From NCBI GenBank assembly GCA_003697105.1, contig RFFQ01000187.1, positions 1-35,578 of the forward strand: a stretch of DNA of 35,578 nt, given 5' to 3'. This stretch comes from Gemmatimonadota bacterium (GTDB lineage Bacteria; 4572-55; J002). A program made the translations under genes and the position numbers. Positions 20,340 through 30,316 of the stretch are shown here, piece by piece; position 1 is the first letter of the stretch, and each line of letters begins with the position of its first letter. Below the pieces are notes generated by a model. That model ran no database searches. It saw only the letters and a list, made by a program, of their open reading frames with translations, and was not told the DNA's origin.

Positions 20340-20750
20340 ATGCAGGTTCACGAGGCATTCACCGAATACGGGCTTACCACGGAAATCGGTTATTACGACA
20401 CCAATAAAACCGTTATTGTCATCAGTTTTACGGGCGTTTTGGATATGCTCAGTGCCGAGGTGGTTTTTGTGAAACGCCGCGCTACCCTCAAAGAATGGTT
20501 TGAAAACAAGCCGGATACGCAACGAATTGTGTTTGATCTGTTTCACTTGGATCACATCAATTCATTTGCCATCGGGCATCTGACCCAATTTTATCTTGCC
20601 TTGTACAAACGCAAAATTCCGGTGACGCTCGTAATTGACCCTGAGAGTACCGTTTATCAGATTTTAGATTACTGCGGATTATTTGAGCTGCACGGCTTGC
20701 ACGTCCAGCGGAAAGATTTAACGGAAGGGCTGGAGCCTTTAGGCGGGTAA
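20340..20750 (+). CDS. divergent STAS-domain (anti-anti-sigma-like) protein
   Basis: VISFTGVLD...RIVFDLFHLDHINSFAIG...VYQILDYCGL follows the SpoIIAA pattern; GAGG RBS. Confidence 0.75.
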   Translation: MQVHEAFTEYGLTTEIGYYDTNKTVIVISFTGVLDMLSAEVVFVKRRATLKEWFENKPDTQRIVFDLFHLDHINSFAIGHLTQFYLALYKRKIPVTLVIDPESTVYQILDYCGLFELHGLHVQRKDLTEGLEPLGG

Positions 20751-21734
20751 CGTGGCGATAAACGCCGAAAACGAAGCGTACGTAGCGATATTATCCGCAA
20801 AAATATCCCGGAGAGACTTCAAAAATAAAATCGCCGATTGAGGGCGTTGACCCGGTTGGAAATGTAAACAACTGTGGACAATGCCCCTTTCTTTTTCTGG
20901 AAGCGCGGCGGCATTGAACATGGCGGTCACCCATGCCTCCTGTTGTTGGCTATCTTCAATAAAGGTCTGGAACTGACTGGCATCGAGGTGTCTCCCGCGC
21001 GAATCTAATTGAAAAATAGACTTACCCGCCAGTACTTCCAACAGAATAATGCCAAGGGAATAAATATCGGCGGCGGGGGTCACCTTGGCCCCACTAAAAC
21101 ATTCTGGGGCACTGTACCCCATCGTCCCAGCGCCGAGGGGAACATGGGGAAAATCCGTTGCCGGGAAACGGTGCGACTCACGGAACACATGTGCAAAACT
21201 GAAATCACAACATACCAAATCGCCATCCGCCGAAACCAAGATATTTTCCGGTTTAAGGTCGCAATGCACCAAGCCGACACGTTCAAAATACGCCACAGCG
21301 TGTGCCAGCTCGCACAAAATATAGCCGGCGAGTGCTTGTCGTTCTGTTTCATTCGTAATGGTGGCAAGTGCCTTCATTACGGGACGTAGTGTTCCTCCGC
21401 CGAATGCCATCCGAAAATACGGAATCCGAGCCAAAGGTTTGCCCATGTGCTGGCGGTCAATCCGGTGTCCCAAAAACCGGCAAAATGAGGTTGTTTTGAC
21501 CACATACTGGCAGTTAAGACGCCACAGCAACTCCGCTTCACGTTCAAATTTGTGTTTGAGGTCGGGGTCAGAAGCCGGTAACATCACCTTGAGAACATGG
21601 GTACGCCCTTCAAAATCAACTTTGTAAATCTCTGCCATGCCTCCAAGACCCAATTGTTCTAAGATGGTGTACTTCAAAAAGGTATTATCGGCATCGATTA
21701 ATATCTCACCGGGTTTAAATCGATAAATTTTCAT
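20739..21734 (-). CDS. Hanks-type Ser/Thr protein kinase, soluble, kinase domain only
   Basis: LGLGGMAEIY, VLK, FEREAE, HCDLKPENILV, DFS (for DFG), GTMGYSAPE, DIYSLG, RP. Confidence 0.9.
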   Translation of the reverse strand: MKIYRFKPGEILIDADNTFLKYTILEQLGLGGMAEIYKVDFEGRTHVLKVMLPASDPDLKHKFEREAELLWRLNCQYVVKTTSFCRFLGHRIDRQHMGKPLARIPYFRMAFGGGTLRPVMKALATITNETERQALAGYILCELAHAVAYFERVGLVHCDLKPENILVSADGDLVCCDFSFAHVFRESHRFPATDFPHVPLGAGTMGYSAPECFSGAKVTPAADIYSLGIILLEVLAGKSIFQLDSRGRHLDASQFQTFIEDSQQQEAWVTAMFNAAALPEKERGIVHSCLHFQPGQRPQSAILFLKSLRDIFADNIATYASFSAFIATLPA

Positions 21735-25648: not shown

Positions 25649-25683
25649 AAAAAATAGGGTACATTTATAGATGTACCCTATTT
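25649..25683 (-). terminator. intrinsic terminator closing the four-gene signalling operon
   Basis: 13-bp inverted repeat AAATAGGGTACAT/ATGTACCCTATTT running into a T6 tract on the minus strand. Confidence 0.8.
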
Positions 25684-25713
25684 GAAATTAAATCAACGAA
25701 TTCAAAGAAAACG

Positions 25714-26070
25714 TTATAGAGAATTAATCGCGTCGTCAATCGTATCCTGAAAATTCAAGATACTAGTAGCACCAACAATATCAAAAATTTCAAACACATT
25801 TTCATTCACCGCGGCAAGGATGAATTTACCCCCTTTTTGCACCACTCGTTTGTTGTAATCAATGATATTTCCTAACGCCGTACTATTGAGGTACTTCAAC
25901 TGTTCAAAATCGGCGATAATATTGACGACCCCGGAATCATTAAGGAGTGAGATAATCTGGTCGGAAACCGCCTGAATATTCGTGGCATCCAACGAACCTG
26001 AGAAATGCATAATTTTAGAATCACTGCGTCCTGCAACATCTTCCTGAACAATTTGGATATCTGTAGCCAT
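25714..26070 (-). CDS. STAS anti-sigma-factor antagonist (SpoIIAA/RsbV-like)
   Basis: FSGSLDA...IIADFEQLKYLNSTALG...VFEIFDIVG; phospho-acceptor Ser retained; GGAGG RBS. Confidence 0.9.
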   Translation of the reverse strand: MATDIQIVQEDVAGRSDSKIMHFSGSLDATNIQAVSDQIISLLNDSGVVNIIADFEQLKYLNSTALGNIIDYNKRVVQKGGKFILAAVNENVFEIFDIVGATSILNFQDTIDDAINSL

Positions 26071-26098
26071 CTATAAAATGACCTCCCTTGAGATGAAC

Positions 26099-26929
26099 TT
26101 ATAGTGTAAAATATTCATTTTCTTGTTTTTTAAATTTCACAATATGGATTTTGGTACCGGGGCCACTTCGGGTATCTATTTCCAGCATATCGGCGAGCAT
26201 TGCCACAATTGGCAATCCACGTCCTCGTTTTTCGACACTGACTTTGCCCTGCTCGGTAAATTGAACTTTTGCCACGGCGCGCCTCAACCCTTCGGCACTA
26301 TCTTTGGAAGCGCCTTTATCTTCAACAACCAAATCCATTTTATCATTATCGATAGTACAGCGCACATTGATCACCGAGTCACTCTCTTTTGAGCCATGTT
26401 CGATAGCATTATTGCAAATTTCATCCACAATCGTCTGAATCCGGTAGGCTTCTTTTCCTTCAAAGCCACGCATGGAAGCGATATTGGAAATAAAGTCCCG
26501 AACACAAGGCACAAAGTCGAGCGAGCTGGGAAAGGCAAGGGTGATAGTTTCTACCCGGGCGGCTTCTTCAAATTGCTGTACGGCATTATACACCGCGGGA
26601 TAAATATCAAACAGTTTATGCACACCCATCACGTGCAGGGCTTTTTCAACCGCCGGTGTAACCCCCGCTAAAATCAAATTTCCTTTCGCCGCCACGGCTT
26701 GCCCCCGGAAACCCATCAGCACTCCCAAAACCGAACCATCAATGTGATTCGTCTGGGTTAAGTCCGCAATGACCTGAAATTTTTTTTGGGCAACTAAATC
26801 TGCAATAATGGCGTTTAATTCTGAAAGCGCTTCCACATTGACCCGTTCACCAAAAGTCAACACGGGTATATCTGGGTTTGTCGGAGCGGGAACAACTTCA
26901 ATGATGTGTTTTGTGGGGTTCATTGCCAC
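26099..26929 (-). CDS. STAS domain fused to an RsbW/SpoIIAB-type ATPase/Ser kinase
   Basis: N-terminal VIADLTQTNHIDGSVLG; C-terminal N-box DEICNNAIEHG, VEDKG, GRGLPIV, GTKI. Confidence 0.87.
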   Translation of the reverse strand: MAMNPTKHIIEVVPAPTNPDIPVLTFGERVNVEALSELNAIIADLVAQKKFQVIADLTQTNHIDGSVLGVLMGFRGQAVAAKGNLILAGVTPAVEKALHVMGVHKLFDIYPAVYNAVQQFEEAARVETITLAFPSSLDFVPCVRDFISNIASMRGFEGKEAYRIQTIVDEICNNAIEHGSKESDSVINVRCTIDNDKMDLVVEDKGASKDSAEGLRRAVAKVQFTEQGKVSVEKRGRGLPIVAMLADMLEIDTRSGPGTKIHIVKFKKQENEYFTL

Positions 26930-26943
26930 TGATTTTACCCTCT

Positions 26944-28434
26944 TTAGGCAGATTTCACTTCAACCAAGCCGGATGAGACCAAACTGTACATGACTTTGTA
27001 TGTTTCAAATTCCGCATGAGTACTTCGCGCTAGGATGTTTTTGACGACCCGTTCTTGCTGGATCAAGGCAATAATGTTCATTTCTTCCGAGGTTAATTTA
27101 ATCTCCCGCTGGGCATCAGAGGGTTGCGGCAACACCACCAGTTCCGCATTCACACTTGGAATTAACTGTTTGATAACATCCATTTCATCCGTTTGGCGAG
27201 CACCTTCCATGAGCAAATGTTGCCAGTGCATTTTCACAGTTCGTTCTTCTTGTGTCACACCCGCCTCAAATATAAATGAACCTTTGCTCCATGTAAAGAA
27301 CGAATATACAGCTTCTTCACCCGACATCCGGTCATCAAGCAGGGCATGAACAATATCCCCATTTTCAAAGAAAATTTCCCCTTTTCCGTTGGGCGAATCC
27401 AGTGTCAGTTTGCCGGTCATTTGGGACGAGCAGATCGTATTGATCAAATCTGGGAAACTGAACACTTCCAACGTGCCTTCCAGACCCAACGCTTTACGGG
27501 CGATTTCTTTAATTCGAGTTTTTAAGGAGACCCGCATTTCATCAAATTTTTCAGCCAAAATACCGACTTCATCTTTGGTATGAACTTCTACGGCATGTTC
27601 GAGGTCACCTCCGGCGATAACCAACGCTTCATCCACAAGGTGTTTAATGGGTTCGGTCACTTTGCTTCCCACCCAACGCGCAATGACAAACGATAAGATG
27701 ATAATGATCAACGTAACCACAATCACAAACAAGATGCTTTTCAGTGTGCTGCGCCGTGCTTCTTGTTCCATACGGGCAATATCTTCTTCCAGTTTTTCAT
27801 ACGATGCCAAATACCGCACGGTATACAAGTGACCAATACCTTCTGCTTCAATTACGGGAAAGACCAAATCCAGCGCCCGAATTTCGCGCCCGTTAATATC
27901 GATAGTCGCTTCCAAGTCCACATCAGGTTCTTTTCCCTGAATGCGCTTCTTGAGTTCGGGGTCACCGGTAATTTCACGCGATCCTTCATAGCGCATCCCC
28001 CGGCCTTTTAACTCATCCCGAGAATCAAAAAGAATTTTTCCCGTGGATGAATATATAATCACGGCTCCGTTATCCACATCCGCATTATTGTCTAAGAGCC
28101 GTTGCATCGGTTCAACGAAAAATTCTTTATATGCCTCTTCAGGGGTCCCATCATAAAACGGCGGCTGGAAGTTATAGTTTTTTTCGTAAAGGTCAATAAT
28201 TTCTTGAGTCGCAAAGCGAGCAAATAAGCGGGTACGGGCTTCCAAGTCGGTTTTCATCTCGCTGCGTTTTTGTTCCAACTGGGCTTTATTCTCTTGATTT
28301 TTCAGATAGATCAGCACGCCGGCATTGATCACCGCACTCACAATAACCAGAGAGCTAATAATGGTGATCAAACGGGGGGTTAAACTGCGTTCCCAGATAT
28401 TATGCCATAGTCGCAAGAAGGGATTTGACTCCAT
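26944..28434 (-). CDS. membrane receptor: TM-periplasmic domain-TM-HAMP-DUF4388 (PATAN-like) with winged-helix-like tail
   Basis: Two TM helices; HAMP VTEPIKHL...GGDL...DEVGILAEKFDEM; DUF4388 pattern LEGTLEVFSFPDLI...TGKL...GEIFFENGDIVHA...GEEA...WSKGSF...LLMEGARQTDE. Confidence 0.85.
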   Translation of the reverse strand: MESNPFLRLWHNIWERSLTPRLITIISSLVIVSAVINAGVLIYLKNQENKAQLEQKRSEMKTDLEARTRLFARFATQEIIDLYEKNYNFQPPFYDGTPEEAYKEFFVEPMQRLLDNNADVDNGAVIIYSSTGKILFDSRDELKGRGMRYEGSREITGDPELKKRIQGKEPDVDLEATIDINGREIRALDLVFPVIEAEGIGHLYTVRYLASYEKLEEDIARMEQEARRSTLKSILFVIVVTLIIIILSFVIARWVGSKVTEPIKHLVDEALVIAGGDLEHAVEVHTKDEVGILAEKFDEMRVSLKTRIKEIARKALGLEGTLEVFSFPDLINTICSSQMTGKLTLDSPNGKGEIFFENGDIVHALLDDRMSGEEAVYSFFTWSKGSFIFEAGVTQEERTVKMHWQHLLMEGARQTDEMDVIKQLIPSVNAELVVLPQPSDAQREIKLTSEEMNIIALIQQERVVKNILARSTHAEFETYKVMYSLVSSGLVEVKSA

Positions 28435-28479
28435 TAGACGGTCCTTTCTGATAAAAGATGCACCAAGTTACCAACAAAT

Positions 28480-30228
28480 TTACCGGATCGCAAAGTTATA
28501 CGGTTTATTATAGTTTTGAAGCATTCGAGTTTGGACGCGTGCGGCGGTGGTGAGTGCTTCTTGAGGACTTTCGACATCGTTAATCACTTTATTAATGGTC
28601 GCCACTTGAACTTCTTTCCAATCGATTTCCCACGGTTTAAACCACATTCCCGCATATTCGGCTTGTTCCACAAAGGGTTCGAGTAATGGATTCTCTCGTC
28701 GAGCAATTTCTCCGGCATCCCGGCGGGTAGGAGAGCGTTTGGTCTCGCGAAAATAATGTAACATGTTGTCGCGTTCCGCGCAAAATTTAATAAAATCCCA
28801 CGCGACTTCAGGGTGTTTGCAATCTTTAGAAACCACTTCGCCCCAGAACGTCGCATGGGCATACTTATTATTTAAGTCGATTTGTGGAATAGGCGCTACG
28901 CCAAAATCAATACCGGCATTGATAAATCCCCCGGCATACCATCCACCCGACATCACCATCGCACATTTACCCTCAATGAATGCTTGACGTTCTGGTGGGG
29001 CATCCGCCGACCAGATATTATATTTTTTAACAAAATCGGTGTAAAATTCAAGAGCTTCTACAAATTTAGGCTGATCTACGAGGGATTTCTTCAAATCAGG
29101 AGATACGGGTGGTTGCCCCATTTGTACGGCAATCATCTCCAGCAAGTTATGATCTTGCGAAACATTACCGACCGATCCGATTGCCGCACCATATACTTCC
29201 CCGTTTGTAGCTTTCTTTATTTGCAAACAATAGTTCAGGAAGTCATCCCACGTGCGAGGGGGACGTTCTGGGTCCAGACCTGCCCGCCGAAAAATCGTTT
29301 TATTGTAATATAAAGCAATCGTATTTGCGCCCAAGGCAATTGCCCAAAGCTTTTCATCAGGCGTATCCATATCAGTGGCAAAGGCGCGACGTACGAAGTC
29401 ATAGAACGTCTCAGCATATTCTTGTGGAGTCATCACAGACGGGGGAATCGGTTCCAGTTGGTCAATATAGTAAGGCAACCATGAGGCATGAATCTCAAAC
29501 ATATCCGGACCCAAACCCAATTCTAACGCCGGTAATAACTTTGATTGAAAATTCTTTTTGCTGATTTGCTTATATACGATATCCACATTTGGGTGCATTG
29601 CCTCATATTTTTCAATTAACGGGGCAAACACCTCCTCTTTTTCCCAAATTCGCCAATATTCTAAGCGAATTTTCGAGGTATCAACCTCAGCGAGTTCCAG
29701 TGCCACTTCATCAACAGGTTCAACAATCAAATTGGTGTGAAGCACGTCCGCCAGACTGGAGCCATCTTCCGCGTCATTTTGAACCGCAATAAACCCTTTA
29801 TTATCAACAAATAACGTTGTGGGTAAACTTTGAATTTCATACTTGGTTAAGAGGTCTGGTTCTCCCATTAGAATGGGATAAGAAATATTGTAAATCCGGG
29901 AAAATCGTGCGGCATCACGCGGGTCAGAATCAAACAAGATCGCCAGCACTTTGAGTCGTGCTTCATTACCGTTATAATATTTTTGGAGCGTGGATAAATC
30001 TTGCCGGATATCACTCTGGTCCACATCCGAACCAAAATAGATCAAACTGACAGAATTTTGAATTGTACTCGTCAGATTAACCTTTTCCCCGTTGACATCC
30101 GTCAGGGTAAAATCAACCACTTTATCGCCCAATTTTGCCCGGGACGAACAGCTACTCATGGTTAATGAGATGATGAAGATAAAAGCGAGGTAGCGTACAA
30201 AGGGGGAAAATGTGAGTATGGATTTCAT
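28480..30228 (-). CDS. lipoprotein: TlpA/AhpC-like thioredoxin fold lacking CxxC fused to a family-1 sugar solute-binding protein
   Basis: Lipobox MSSC; DFTLTDVNGEKVNL...YPIL...SLPTTLFVDNKG; SBP motifs YEAMHPNVDI, GPDMF, LYYNKTIFRRAGL, PPRTWDDF, AWDFIKF; ATG 30228 preferred over 30258. Confidence 0.87.
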   Translation of the reverse strand: MKSILTFSPFVRYLAFIFIISLTMSSCSSRAKLGDKVVDFTLTDVNGEKVNLTSTIQNSVSLIYFGSDVDQSDIRQDLSTLQKYYNGNEARLKVLAILFDSDPRDAARFSRIYNISYPILMGEPDLLTKYEIQSLPTTLFVDNKGFIAVQNDAEDGSSLADVLHTNLIVEPVDEVALELAEVDTSKIRLEYWRIWEKEEVFAPLIEKYEAMHPNVDIVYKQISKKNFQSKLLPALELGLGPDMFEIHASWLPYYIDQLEPIPPSVMTPQEYAETFYDFVRRAFATDMDTPDEKLWAIALGANTIALYYNKTIFRRAGLDPERPPRTWDDFLNYCLQIKKATNGEVYGAAIGSVGNVSQDHNLLEMIAVQMGQPPVSPDLKKSLVDQPKFVEALEFYTDFVKKYNIWSADAPPERQAFIEGKCAMVMSGGWYAGGFINAGIDFGVAPIPQIDLNNKYAHATFWGEVVSKDCKHPEVAWDFIKFCAERDNMLHYFRETKRSPTRRDAGEIARRENPLLEPFVEQAEYAGMWFKPWEIDWKEVQVATINKVINDVESPQEALTTAARVQTRMLQNYNKPYNFAIR

Positions 30229-30287
30229 GTATAATGCCTTCTCCCAAGGAGGAATCAACTACGAGCTAAACCTTAGAACTGTGAATG

Positions 30288-30316
30288 ATTCTACACAATT
30301 TAGAAAATGATGTCAA
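30288..30316 (-). promoter_or_regulatory. sigma70 promoter TTGACA-17-TAGAAT for the four-gene operon
   Basis: Reverse complement of tgtcaa (30311-30316) and attcta (30288-30293). Confidence 0.8.

Follow-up and report, generated by a model that had tools for sequence, protein, structure and literature searches.

In its classical form, a partner switch sequesters a sigma factor that is encoded with the switch. The Hmp partner-switching system of Nostoc punctiforme, reportedly described by Riley et al. in 2018, is said to have a non-classical output and to be tied to type IV pilus-dependent motility. ChvE-VirA and LuxP-LuxQ are known as SBP-dependent membrane sensor pairs. Passages on CBP-ChiS describe another such pair (PMC12704726), and in the relevant passages of its source the chlamydial Rsb system is presented as a partner switch whose sensor phosphatase, RsbU, is a membrane protein (PMC11619594). 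[quoted passage not shown]

The locus described here combines elements of these systems in four minus-strand genes, which lie in a window of 35,578 nucleotides (the whole stretch of DNA analysed) and carry the following features.

30288..30316, minus strand: sigma-70-type promoter-like site, TTGACA-17-TAGAAT, agreeing with 11 of 12 consensus positions
28480..30228, minus strand: gene 1, SBP lipoprotein, 582 aa from the ATG at 30228
30258, minus strand: alternative TTG start of gene 1 (ORF list), giving 592 aa
29785..30129, minus strand: AhpC/TSA-like thioredoxin-fold domain without CxxC (Pfam PF00578, 2e-09)
28711..29631, minus strand: SBP_bac_1/SBP_bac_8 domain of the MalE/UgpB-like sugar-binding type (Pfam)
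26944..28434, minus strand: gene 2, membrane receptor, 496 aa
28315..28371, minus strand: TM1 of gene 2 (TM prediction)
27736..28314, minus strand: periplasmic sensor domain of gene 2, residues ~41-233, single-Cache/PDC-like fold (AF2 model, pLDDT 82)
27679..27735, minus strand: TM2 of gene 2 (TM prediction)
27520..27675, minus strand: HAMP domain of gene 2, residues 254-305 (Pfam PF00672, 7.8e-10)
26953..27483, minus strand: PATAN module of gene 2, residues ~318-494, composed of an alpha/beta part (DUF4388), one long helix and, at the C terminus, a winged-helix-like subdomain
26099..26929, minus strand: gene 3, STAS + RsbW-like kinase fusion, 276 aa
26582..26887, minus strand: N-terminal STAS domain of gene 3
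26135..26533, minus strand: RsbW/SpoIIAB-like GHKL serine kinase domain of gene 3
25714..26070, minus strand: gene 4, single-domain STAS protein, 118 aa
25652..25683, minus strand: intrinsic-terminator-like hairpin, 13-bp stem and 6-nt loop, followed by a T tract

Separated in order by 45, 14 and 28 bp, the four genes were predicted, from spacing and motifs only, to form one transcription unit. The ATG at 30228, which is the start used for gene 1 in the protein collection (582-aa form), was preceded by the promoter-like site at a distance of ~60 nt. The promoter scan as a whole yielded 16 sites against 13.1 +/- 3.9 in shuffles, which was not above chance, and a second 11/12 site fell inside gene 1; TTGACA-17-TAGAAT is a plausible promoter of gene 1 that is not statistically unique in the region. 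The 74-nt spacer with the hairpin folded at -17.9 kcal/mol (z = -5.35), and none of 200 shuffles folded as well. The start of mfd followed 13 nt past the hairpin on the same strand, and transcriptional read-through from the unit into mfd may occur. The unit contained no gene for an ABC permease, a PP2C or a sigma factor, and a profile scan of the window's 21 other ORFs of 150 aa or more found none either. The original prediction, made from the letters of the window, was borne out in these respects: four co-oriented genes with gaps of 14-45 bp, an opening promoter-like motif (with the scan overall at chance level), a closing 13-bp hairpin with a T tract, and a unit devoid of permease/ATPase, PP2C and sigma factor genes. 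Its domain calls for all four genes were likewise confirmed by the Pfam profile search.

The order SBP, receptor, STAS-kinase, STAS was kept in all three genomes of a three-species candidate phylum. Order and tight spacing persisted at 35-57% protein identity across two families, and the flanking genes differed fully (xerC-like and mfd here; folD and PP2C in the sister genomes). A metagenome scan for further loci returned three, one of them a 2.2-kb fragment. The receptor appears to share contigs with the SBP, judged indirectly from equal "longest contig" sizes of the two clusters (11240, 21263 and 12795); such sizes were also equal for the receptor and STAS-kinase clusters (2736 and 12795). 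The linkage evidence comprises three independent genomes and a few contigs, all kin.

The gene 1 product began with one hydrophobic segment followed by SSC, a lipoprotein-type signal, and matched AhpC-TSA (2e-09) and SBP_bac_1 (2.7e-36) in Pfam. The "Trx-SBP" label originally given to it held in that both the thioredoxin fold and the SBP domain were matched, and needed amending in that the Trx domain has no CxxC. After the lipobox Cys, neither this protein nor its Trx-SBP orthologues P0193 and P0195 had any further Cys before the SBP domain, and the ResA match reached 45.6 bits against a cut-off of 170. A redox role as a thiol-disulfide oxidoreductase (TlpA/ResA/AhpC-TSA) was ruled out for this domain, as it has no Cys. 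The closest solved relatives of the SBP domain were sugar or oligosaccharide SBPs (best E 5.9e-21), in agreement with the sugar-like ligand class predicted earlier. Orthologues formed a group at 41-70% identity, beyond which identity fell to 34%, and carried anchoring extras, in the form of a LysM domain or of a lipoprotein signal combined with a dead Trx fold. In 3/3 genomes of the phylum, the SBP gene adjoined the receptor gene with no permease alongside; SBP orthologues beside ABC permeases, which the earlier proposal had named as evidence against itself, were not seen in these genomes.

The gene 2 product was laid out as TM1, Cache-like periplasmic domain, TM2, HAMP and PATAN (Pfam HAMP 7.8e-10; DUF4388 7.5e-27). 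The Foldseek matches of its sensor domain were extracellular domains from WalK, KinD and TlpB, at E 2.6e-05 and weaker and TMt of at most 0.73. The PF14332 match scored 94.2 bits against a cut-off of 25 and covered profile positions 1-121 of 122 over 100 residues, and the whole PATAN unit (~177 aa) recurred in 8236 representative proteins. Its AF2 model (pLDDT 94.4) had no Foldseek match in the PDB at E <= 0.001. In a wide structure search, the C-terminal 70 residues resembled winged-helix folds at Z 6-7.6, a range called common, and no other PATAN part was matched; a PATAN profile search of PDB sequences gave weak MarR/AdcR-type matches only (best E 0.0027). That DUF4388 is a non-enzymatic output, as first proposed, agrees with the passages on PATAN in the literature (bioRxiv 10.1101/2021.06.11.447907). 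Pfam matched no Response_reg (receiver) domain in the gene 2 product, whose N-terminal part consists of TM, Cache-like, TM and HAMP segments; with its PATAN domain not fused to a CheY-like receiver, it was rejected as a PatA-type response regulator. MCPsignal was not matched by Pfam either, and MCP-family matches covered only TM2-HAMP (residues 207-321), far under their cut-offs; a methyl-accepting chemotaxis protein was also rejected, as no MCP signalling domain follows HAMP.

Gene 3 encodes a predicted RsbW/SpoIIAB-like serine kinase (Pfam STAS 8.9e-11; HATPase_c_2 4.2e-21). Its best NCBIfam matches were RsbW (1.1e-17) and SpoIIAB, all under the equivalog cut-offs, and the kinase N-box and G2-like RGRGL were invariant in 18/18 aligned homologues. 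Its STAS domain had Gly at the phospho-serine-equivalent position, which was not conserved. The gene 4 product matched Pfam STAS at 1.2e-15 and TIGR00377 at 57.9 bits (cut-off 53.45). In a residue-by-residue alignment with solved chains, its Ser63 (codon 25882-25884) fell on the first Ser of the SpoIIAA DSSG motif, a position that is Ala in the variant SpoIIAA chain 1tid_B, and the motif was invariant in all three gene 4 orthologues. No sigma-70 family gene, the classical sequestered target, was found in the scanned window ORFs or the sister loci, and none of the 6 Sigma70_r2 matches of the genome was on contig C69.

The proposal that this switch operates without PP2C input was not supported by the comparison with the sister genomes. 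In each of the two sister loci, the STAS gene was directly followed by a HAMP-GAF-SpoIIE gene whose product has TM segments; locus L002 had another such gene after it. The best matches of these PP2Cs in the genome of the window were two tandem genes on another contig, C112:29360-31708 and C112:27058-29358. In reverse searches, the top matches of each were the cluster-linked PP2Cs of G001 and G002 (E 4.8e-61 and 3.0e-72 for the former; 3.0e-114 and 3.3e-113 for the latter), and by sequence the C112 pair are reciprocal-best orthologues of the sister-locus phosphatases. All five proteins had a pair of TM segments flanking 240-300 periplasmic residues. The absence of a PP2C neighbour tells little here, because each of the 13 PP2C genes of this genome lies apart from any STAS or RsbW-like gene. 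With PP2Cs standing beside the sister STAS genes and their orthologues kept on C112, the four genes represent the core, now detached, of a partner switch of six genes with ordinary PP2C input rather than a PP2C-free pathway.

The reading that we favour, with confidence somewhat above even, is that the four genes provide the sensing and switching core of a partner-switching module that comprises six genes and is conserved in a small candidate phylum; within it, an SBP-fed PATAN receptor would dock a switch component. The kinase domain of gene 3 would phosphorylate Ser63 of the free STAS protein, and two membrane phosphatases (TM, periplasmic domain, TM, (HAMP), GAF, PP2C), whose genes would have moved as a pair to contig C112 in this genome, would strip the phosphate; we infer that the C112 phosphatases act on the gene 4 STAS. 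The envelope-anchored, permease-less sugar-type SBP would convey ligand binding to the receptor at the Cache-like periplasmic domain, and HAMP would relay the signal to the C-terminal PATAN module, a protein-binding output with no enzyme activity of its own. Depending on ligand, this module may dock a component of the switch at the membrane (most likely the kinase's N-terminal STAS domain, which cannot be phosphorylated), and the receptor would thereby set the amount of free STAS that is phosphorylated. Unphosphorylated STAS or the kinase would then act on a target other than a sigma factor of this cluster. The PATAN-switch contact is purely conjectural; a complex prediction of STAS-kinase and STAS with the PATAN module as partner, run without controls, scored 0.00 against a mark of 0.32, an outcome that speaks neither for nor against the contact.

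The clustering would also be explained if the PATAN module did not touch the STAS proteins and bound a target encoded elsewhere, such as the N-terminal domain of a PilB/MshE-like ATPase, with unphosphorylated STAS acting on the same machine and the genes held together since both regulate one process. We consider this unlikely on balance. The cyanobacterial PixE PATAN binds the PilB1 N-terminus and the PilC NTD according to the passages cited above (bioRxiv 10.1101/2021.06.11.447907), the present genome has 7 PilB/GspE-size and about 5 PilT-size T2SSE ATPase genes, and on contig C84 a STAS gene directly follows an MshEN-T2SSE ATPase gene. HAMP-PATAN receptors with a cytoplasmic module 47-49% identical to ours were found in two unrelated MAGs, between TolC-like and lipid-kinase genes and with no STAS gene beside them, which fits a conserved target outside the cluster and counts against the favoured reading. 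The genome yielded 6 sigma-70 region 2 matches against 24 STAS matches and 13 PP2C genes, and therefore most switches in it would have non-sigma outputs. Against these points, the cluster and its flanks were free of pilus and secretion genes in all three genomes, the cyanobacterial data concern PATAN-REC proteins from a distant phylum, and the C84 STAS is a different paralogue. We think it improbable that the receptor is a new transmembrane class with regulated docking in which, on binding of a cell-envelope glycan by the anchored SBP, the PATAN/winged-helix module captures or releases the STAS-kinase through its non-phosphorylatable STAS domain as a second, phosphatase-independent input, with a PilB/MshE-like ATPase of secretion or pili, rather than a sigma factor, as the final target.

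The original version of the model, in which the SBP/HAMP/DUF4388 receptor is the sole input and controls the STAS-kinase/STAS pair through contact, now seems very improbable. The unit does end here at a strong hairpin with no PP2C gene, and the split parted the PP2C pair from the SBP and receptor, which remained beside the kinase and STAS. However, PP2Cs follow STAS in both sisters, with orthologues kept in this genome, and a kinase with a phosphorylatable substrate requires a resetting phosphatase, of which the genome has 13, none STAS-linked. It is also improbable that the genes have no functional link, with the SBP an ordinary uptake protein for an ABC transporter elsewhere, the receptor an independent sensor, STAS-kinase/STAS a separate module, and adjacency a matter of lineage-specific synteny. 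Every sub-unit was also found alone elsewhere; STAS-kinase and STAS, for example, were paired without a PATAN gene in G107 (none within ~8 kb by HMM) and in G115, on a contig of just 3.4 kb. Several BPD_transp_1 permease pairs lie in this genome on contigs without an SBP_bac_1 match, and the gene 1 SBP could serve one of them. Support for linkage came from one small lineage, in which two independent units could be travelling together. Order and spacing were nevertheless retained at the divergence given above, with wholly different flanks, the SBP orthologue group is narrow like that of the receptor and appears on the same contigs, and the SBP anchoring domains are atypical of a diffusible uptake protein.

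Under the favoured reading of a six-gene module, the core switch (kinase, STAS, PP2C) is itself ordinary. A search of open-access main texts found no description of a HAMP-PATAN receptor and no link between PATAN and a partner switch. Three features remain new with respect to that literature: the coupling of Cache, HAMP and PATAN in one transmembrane receptor, the constant company of a permease-less SBP, and the placing of this receptor in a partner switch without a sigma factor. The inputs and outputs of partner switches outside Firmicutes are mostly unknown, and PATAN has so far been studied almost solely in PATAN-REC regulators of cyanobacterial pili. The module would offer testable cases of a transmembrane ligand sensor that drives a PATAN domain and of a partner switch fed by three membrane sensors, namely one PATAN receptor and two PP2Cs. 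It also advises caution in neighbourhood inference, as the "missing" phosphatase was absent only at the locus of this one genome.

Compared with RsbU/RsbV/RsbW and SpoIIE/SpoIIAA/SpoIIAB, the module shares a STAS Ser that aligns with the SpoIIAA phosphosite, an RsbW-like GHKL kinase and, in the conserved cluster, membrane PP2C sensor phosphatases. It differs in that an N-terminal STAS domain is fused to the kinase and has Gly where the phosphosite would be, that no sigma factor is in or near the cluster, that the PP2C genes are detached in this genome, and that the cluster includes an SBP and a Cache-HAMP-PATAN receptor. Similar to ChvE-VirA, LuxP-LuxQ and CBP-ChiS, a binding protein gene stands beside that of a sensor with a periplasmic PAS/Cache-like domain and no adjacent permease; the output here is PATAN and not a histidine kinase, the SBP is anchored (lipid and dead Trx fold, or LysM), and its binding to the sensor is a prediction. 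Gene 1 shares the SBP_bac_1 fold and sugar-SBP relatives with the CUT1 sugar-type ABC SBPs, and has no adjacent permease or ATPase genes. The Hmp system is likewise a partner switch whose output is not the classical one, and in its host the pilus motor is also a target of PATAN regulators; it belongs to another phylum and involves no SBP, and we know of no PATAN protein reported as part of that switch. The PatA-type PATAN-REC regulators of cyanobacteria (PixE, PixG, PatA) have, in the passages of the source on these proteins, the same non-enzymatic PF14332/PATAN protein-binding output, and the gene 2 PATAN appears to lack the alpha-clip insertion described there, judged from the Pfam match (100 residues over 121 profile positions) (bioRxiv 10.1101/2021.06.11.447907). 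In those regulators the PATAN domain is joined to a phospho-receiver domain, whereas in the gene 2 receptor it is placed under a transmembrane Cache-HAMP input.

The original prediction described four co-oriented genes bounded by a promoter-like site and a hairpin, and this arrangement was confirmed by open reading frame (ORF) analysis, motif scanning and folding against shuffled sequences. The features, in the direction of transcription, were as follows.

30316..30288, minus strand, promoter-like site TTGACA-17-TAGAAT (11 of 12 positions match)
30258/30228..28480, minus strand, gene 1, solute-binding protein (SBP) lipoprotein (ORF; 582 aa from ATG, the form in the protein collection)
28434..26944, minus strand, gene 2, receptor (ORF, 496 aa)
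26929..26099, minus strand, gene 3, STAS-kinase (ORF, 276 aa)
26070..25714, minus strand, gene 4, STAS protein (ORF, 118 aa)
25683..25652, minus strand, terminator-like hairpin (strong stem)

The gaps between the genes were 45, 14 and 28 bp, and Pfam returned the domains as originally named: AhpC-TSA and SBP_bac_1, HAMP and DUF4388, STAS and HATPase_c_2, and STAS. Promoter-like sites numbered 16 in the region against 13.1 +/- 3.9 in shuffles, which is no excess, and a second site of equal quality was located within gene 1. The spacer holding the hairpin folded at -17.9 kcal/mol (z = -5.35), an energy reached by 0 of 200 shuffles; its reading as a transcript end is qualified by the start of mfd 13 nt past it on the same strand. 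The flanks were housekeeping genes, with an XerC/D-type recombinase upstream and mfd downstream, and no permease, PP2C or sigma factor turned up among the 21 remaining ORFs of 150 aa or longer that were scanned in the window.

The product of gene 1 is predicted to be a lipoprotein, as its N-terminus carried a single hydrophobic segment followed by SSC. Its SBP domain was of the sugar/oligosaccharide type, the closest solved relatives being family-1 sugar SBPs (best E 5.9e-21), and the NCBIfam matches (GanS, UgpB, MalE and NgcE) all fell far under their equivalog cut-offs. The thioredoxin-fold domain contained no cysteine and is therefore no redox enzyme; a redox role was ruled out on this ground, and the orthologues P0193 and P0195 likewise lacked a CxxC motif. 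The orthologue group was as narrow as that of the receptor (41-70% identity, followed by generic SBPs at 34% or less). Two anchoring extras were distinguished within it, a lipoprotein signal with a dead thioredoxin fold in the window's subclade (three proteins), and, in the sister family, a C-terminal extension common to L001 and L002, the sister loci in two other genomes of the same candidate phylum; Pfam scored this extension as LysM in L002 and in the database protein P0197. As originally proposed, the SBP had no permease partner at the locus, with none adjoining it in any of the three phylum genomes. Some permease pairs in the window's genome lay on contigs without any SBP_bac_1 match, and the SBP may serve a distantly encoded ABC transporter, which would speak against its tie to the receptor.

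Gene 2 encodes a protein with two predicted transmembrane segments. The AF2 model of its periplasmic domain (pLDDT 82, from a 10-row alignment) resembled extracellular domains of the single-Cache/PDC type, those of WalK, KinD and TlpB, at E 2.6e-05 and weaker and TMt of at most 0.73. The C-terminal part consisted of a HAMP domain and a module of about 177 aa, of which Pfam DUF4388 spans only the first 100 residues; the module recurred whole in 8236 representative proteins (E <= 1e-3), and its fold was predicted with a pLDDT of 94.4. Its last 70 residues showed a winged-helix likeness at Z 6-7.6, a range rated common by the search tool, and structure and profile searches found no clear solved relative for its first part. 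DUF4388 is identified as the PATAN domain in a preprint (bioRxiv 10.1101/2021.06.11.447907), which reports that the PATAN part of PixE on its own binds PilC at its N-terminus and the pilus ATPase PilB1 at its N-terminal domain, and is by itself enough to reverse phototaxis. PATAN has thus already been described as an output domain that works by binding proteins, which bears out the suggestion that DUF4388 acts as a non-enzymatic output.

The kinase of gene 3, an RsbW/SpoIIAB-like domain fused to a STAS domain, kept its N-box and RGRGL motif unchanged across 18 aligned homologues. In the fused STAS domain, the position equivalent to the phospho-serine, with the register set by a shared xLG anchor, was Gly, with G, S, Y and A among homologues. 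Gene 4 encodes a lone STAS domain. In an alignment with solved SpoIIAA chains, its Ser63 matched the first of the two serines in the DSSG loop, the residue that we take to be phosphorylated; the equivalent position was Ala in the SpoIIAA variant chain 1tid_B, and the Ser63 motif was identical across three orthologues. True STAS-kinase fusions were scarce, with five among the 301 genomes searched, three of them in this phylum; the remaining matches were rejected, as they had arisen by reading through the stop between a STAS gene and a neighbouring kinase gene.

Outside the phylum, the fusions in genomes G107 and G115 adjoined a free STAS gene; a custom HMM found no PATAN gene within about 8 kb of the G107 fusion, and none was present on the 3.4-kb contig of the G115 fusion. 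The receptor family was very small, a search of 5.8 billion proteins yielding 10 clusters at E < 1e-100. Receptors at L003 and L004, in two unrelated metagenome-assembled genomes, carried a HAMP-PATAN cassette 47-49% identical to that of the window and a different periplasmic domain, and no STAS gene stood beside them. At both loci (L003:4728-8841 and L004:5189-9113), the receptor gene was flanked by a TolC-like OEP gene on one side and a YegS-type lipid kinase gene on the other, a triad common to the two. As HAMP-PATAN occurs elsewhere without STAS, and the fusion without PATAN, comparison indicated that the SBP, the receptor and the STAS-kinase/STAS pair are separable sub-units whose union is specific to this lineage, which counts against a link between them.

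Related genes were encountered elsewhere in the window's genome. A further STAS ORF in the window (20340..20750, plus strand, 136 aa), after glmS and glmM, carries a Ser at the NSxxxG position, and a gene for a Hanks-type Ser/Thr protein kinase (20739..21734, minus strand) converges on it. On contig C119 (L030:5064-7323), an Arf/MglA-like small GTPase ORF precedes a PATAN protein, a pair that fits the MglA/PATAN neighbourhood described in the PATAN preprint (bioRxiv 10.1101/2021.06.11.447907). On C135 (L028:1288-3229), a gene for a REC-PATAN protein and one for a cNMP-binding PP2C converge. On C143 (L029:3306-9447), about 4 kb and two cNMP-binding ORFs separate a PATAN-TPR gene from a GAF-PP2C gene. 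Of the other nine PATAN genes in this genome, two therefore had a PP2C gene within 6 kb. Among the representative proteins returned by the search with the PATAN module, the giant P0046 (2014 aa) contains four alternating cNMP-binding and PATAN units.

In the GTDB-based genome set the phylum was represented by just three species, each of which had the receptor. Support for linkage of the module comes from one small lineage. The neighbourhood search proposed at the outset found the order SBP, receptor, STAS-kinase, STAS kept at L001 and L002 (identities 52-53, 44-45, 35 and 54-58%), with flanks wholly unlike those of the window and folD upstream. 'Longest contig' sizes agreed between receptor and SBP clusters (11240, 21263 and 12795) and between receptor and STAS-kinase clusters (2736 and 12795), which suggests, indirectly, shared contigs. 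This agreement, the narrow SBP orthologue group, its anchoring extras and the lack of an adjoining permease speak for a link between SBP, receptor and switch. That the arrangement is mere synteny without function we consider improbable. Directly after STAS, both sister loci carried a TM-HAMP-GAF-SpoIIE phosphatase gene (about 800 aa). At L002 a second such gene stood immediately after the first. In the sister genome G002 the second PP2C gene lay about 2.6 kb behind the first, with one intervening ORF without assignment. Within the window's genome, these phosphatases matched best to a pair of neighbouring genes on contig C112 that kept their order, and searches back from the C112 genes returned the cluster-linked genes at the top in both sister genomes (E 3.0e-72 and 4.8e-61 for the first, 3.0e-114 and 3.3e-113 for the second). 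All five PP2C proteins had two transmembrane segments flanking a periplasmic stretch of 240-300 aa. Because the cluster-linked phosphatases have this orthologous pair, which sits behind a small aspartyl-protease-like ORF and ahead of an ABC-2 transporter, the conserved unit is one of six genes, with the phosphatase pair apart from the core in the window's lineage; after the split, the SBP stayed beside the PATAN receptor rather than the phosphatases, which also favours the link.

The original prediction had assumed a pathway free of PP2C, in keeping with the gene content of the window. The sister loci and the C112 orthologues make that pathway very improbable. The window's genome held 13 SpoIIE-type PP2C genes, 24 STAS matches, about 7 RsbW-like kinases and only 6 Sigma70_r2 matches, and no STAS or RsbW-like gene lay within 6 kb of any of the 13 PP2C genes; the absence of PP2C from the locus is therefore the rule in this genome and no sign of a different mechanism. 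Sequence and comparison showed that kinase, phosphorylatable STAS and PP2C are all encoded, the PP2C in trans in the window's genome. They also showed three membrane sensors, each with a periplasmic domain, a sugar-type SBP that lacks a permease, a receptor output domain that binds proteins and has no enzymatic function, and no sigma factor. The solid part of our reading is a predicted partner switch whose PP2Cs are encoded in trans and whose link to the SBP and receptor is conserved. The SBP would dock on the Cache domain of the receptor, in analogy to ChvE-VirA, LuxP-LuxQ and CBP-ChiS, and HAMP would toggle the PATAN module between binding states. The partner bound by PATAN would be a switch component, and the extra STAS domain of the gene 3 kinase is favoured, as this domain is no possible substrate and has no other explanation. 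Taken as a whole, this reading is moderately probable; the specific PATAN-STAS contact is its weak part and, on its own, rather doubtful. In the main alternative, which we regard as unlikely, PATAN would bind a conserved target that is encoded elsewhere, for instance an ATPase of the PilB/MshE-like kind, and receptor and switch would form parallel branches onto one machine. The window's genome encodes seven PilB-size ATPases. On the short contig C84 (L027:409-2447, minus strand), a STAS gene comes immediately after one for a PilB/MshE-like MshEN-T2SSE ATPase, which may be a secretion or pilus ATPase under STAS control. The same contig also bears an LSDAT_prok/SLOG and SLATT_1 gene pair.

In the main texts of the open-access literature, no paper was found that describes a HAMP-PATAN receptor or connects PATAN to a partner switch. 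The locus offers a concrete, testable entry to PATAN binding partners outside cyanobacteria, and bears on the intake of envelope signals by non-sigma partner switches. Gene 2 shares the PATAN family with PatA-type regulators and differs from them in having no receiver domain, and it likewise differs from methyl-accepting chemotaxis proteins (MCPs) in having no MCP signalling domain; it therefore belongs to neither group. The module shows three of the four defining features of an RsbU/V/W-type partner switch, the sequestered sigma factor being the one missing. The parts and the switch logic are already known, and it is their combination that is new: a PATAN receptor, putatively gated by ligand, paired with an anchored orphan SBP within what is predicted to be a sigma-less partner switch.
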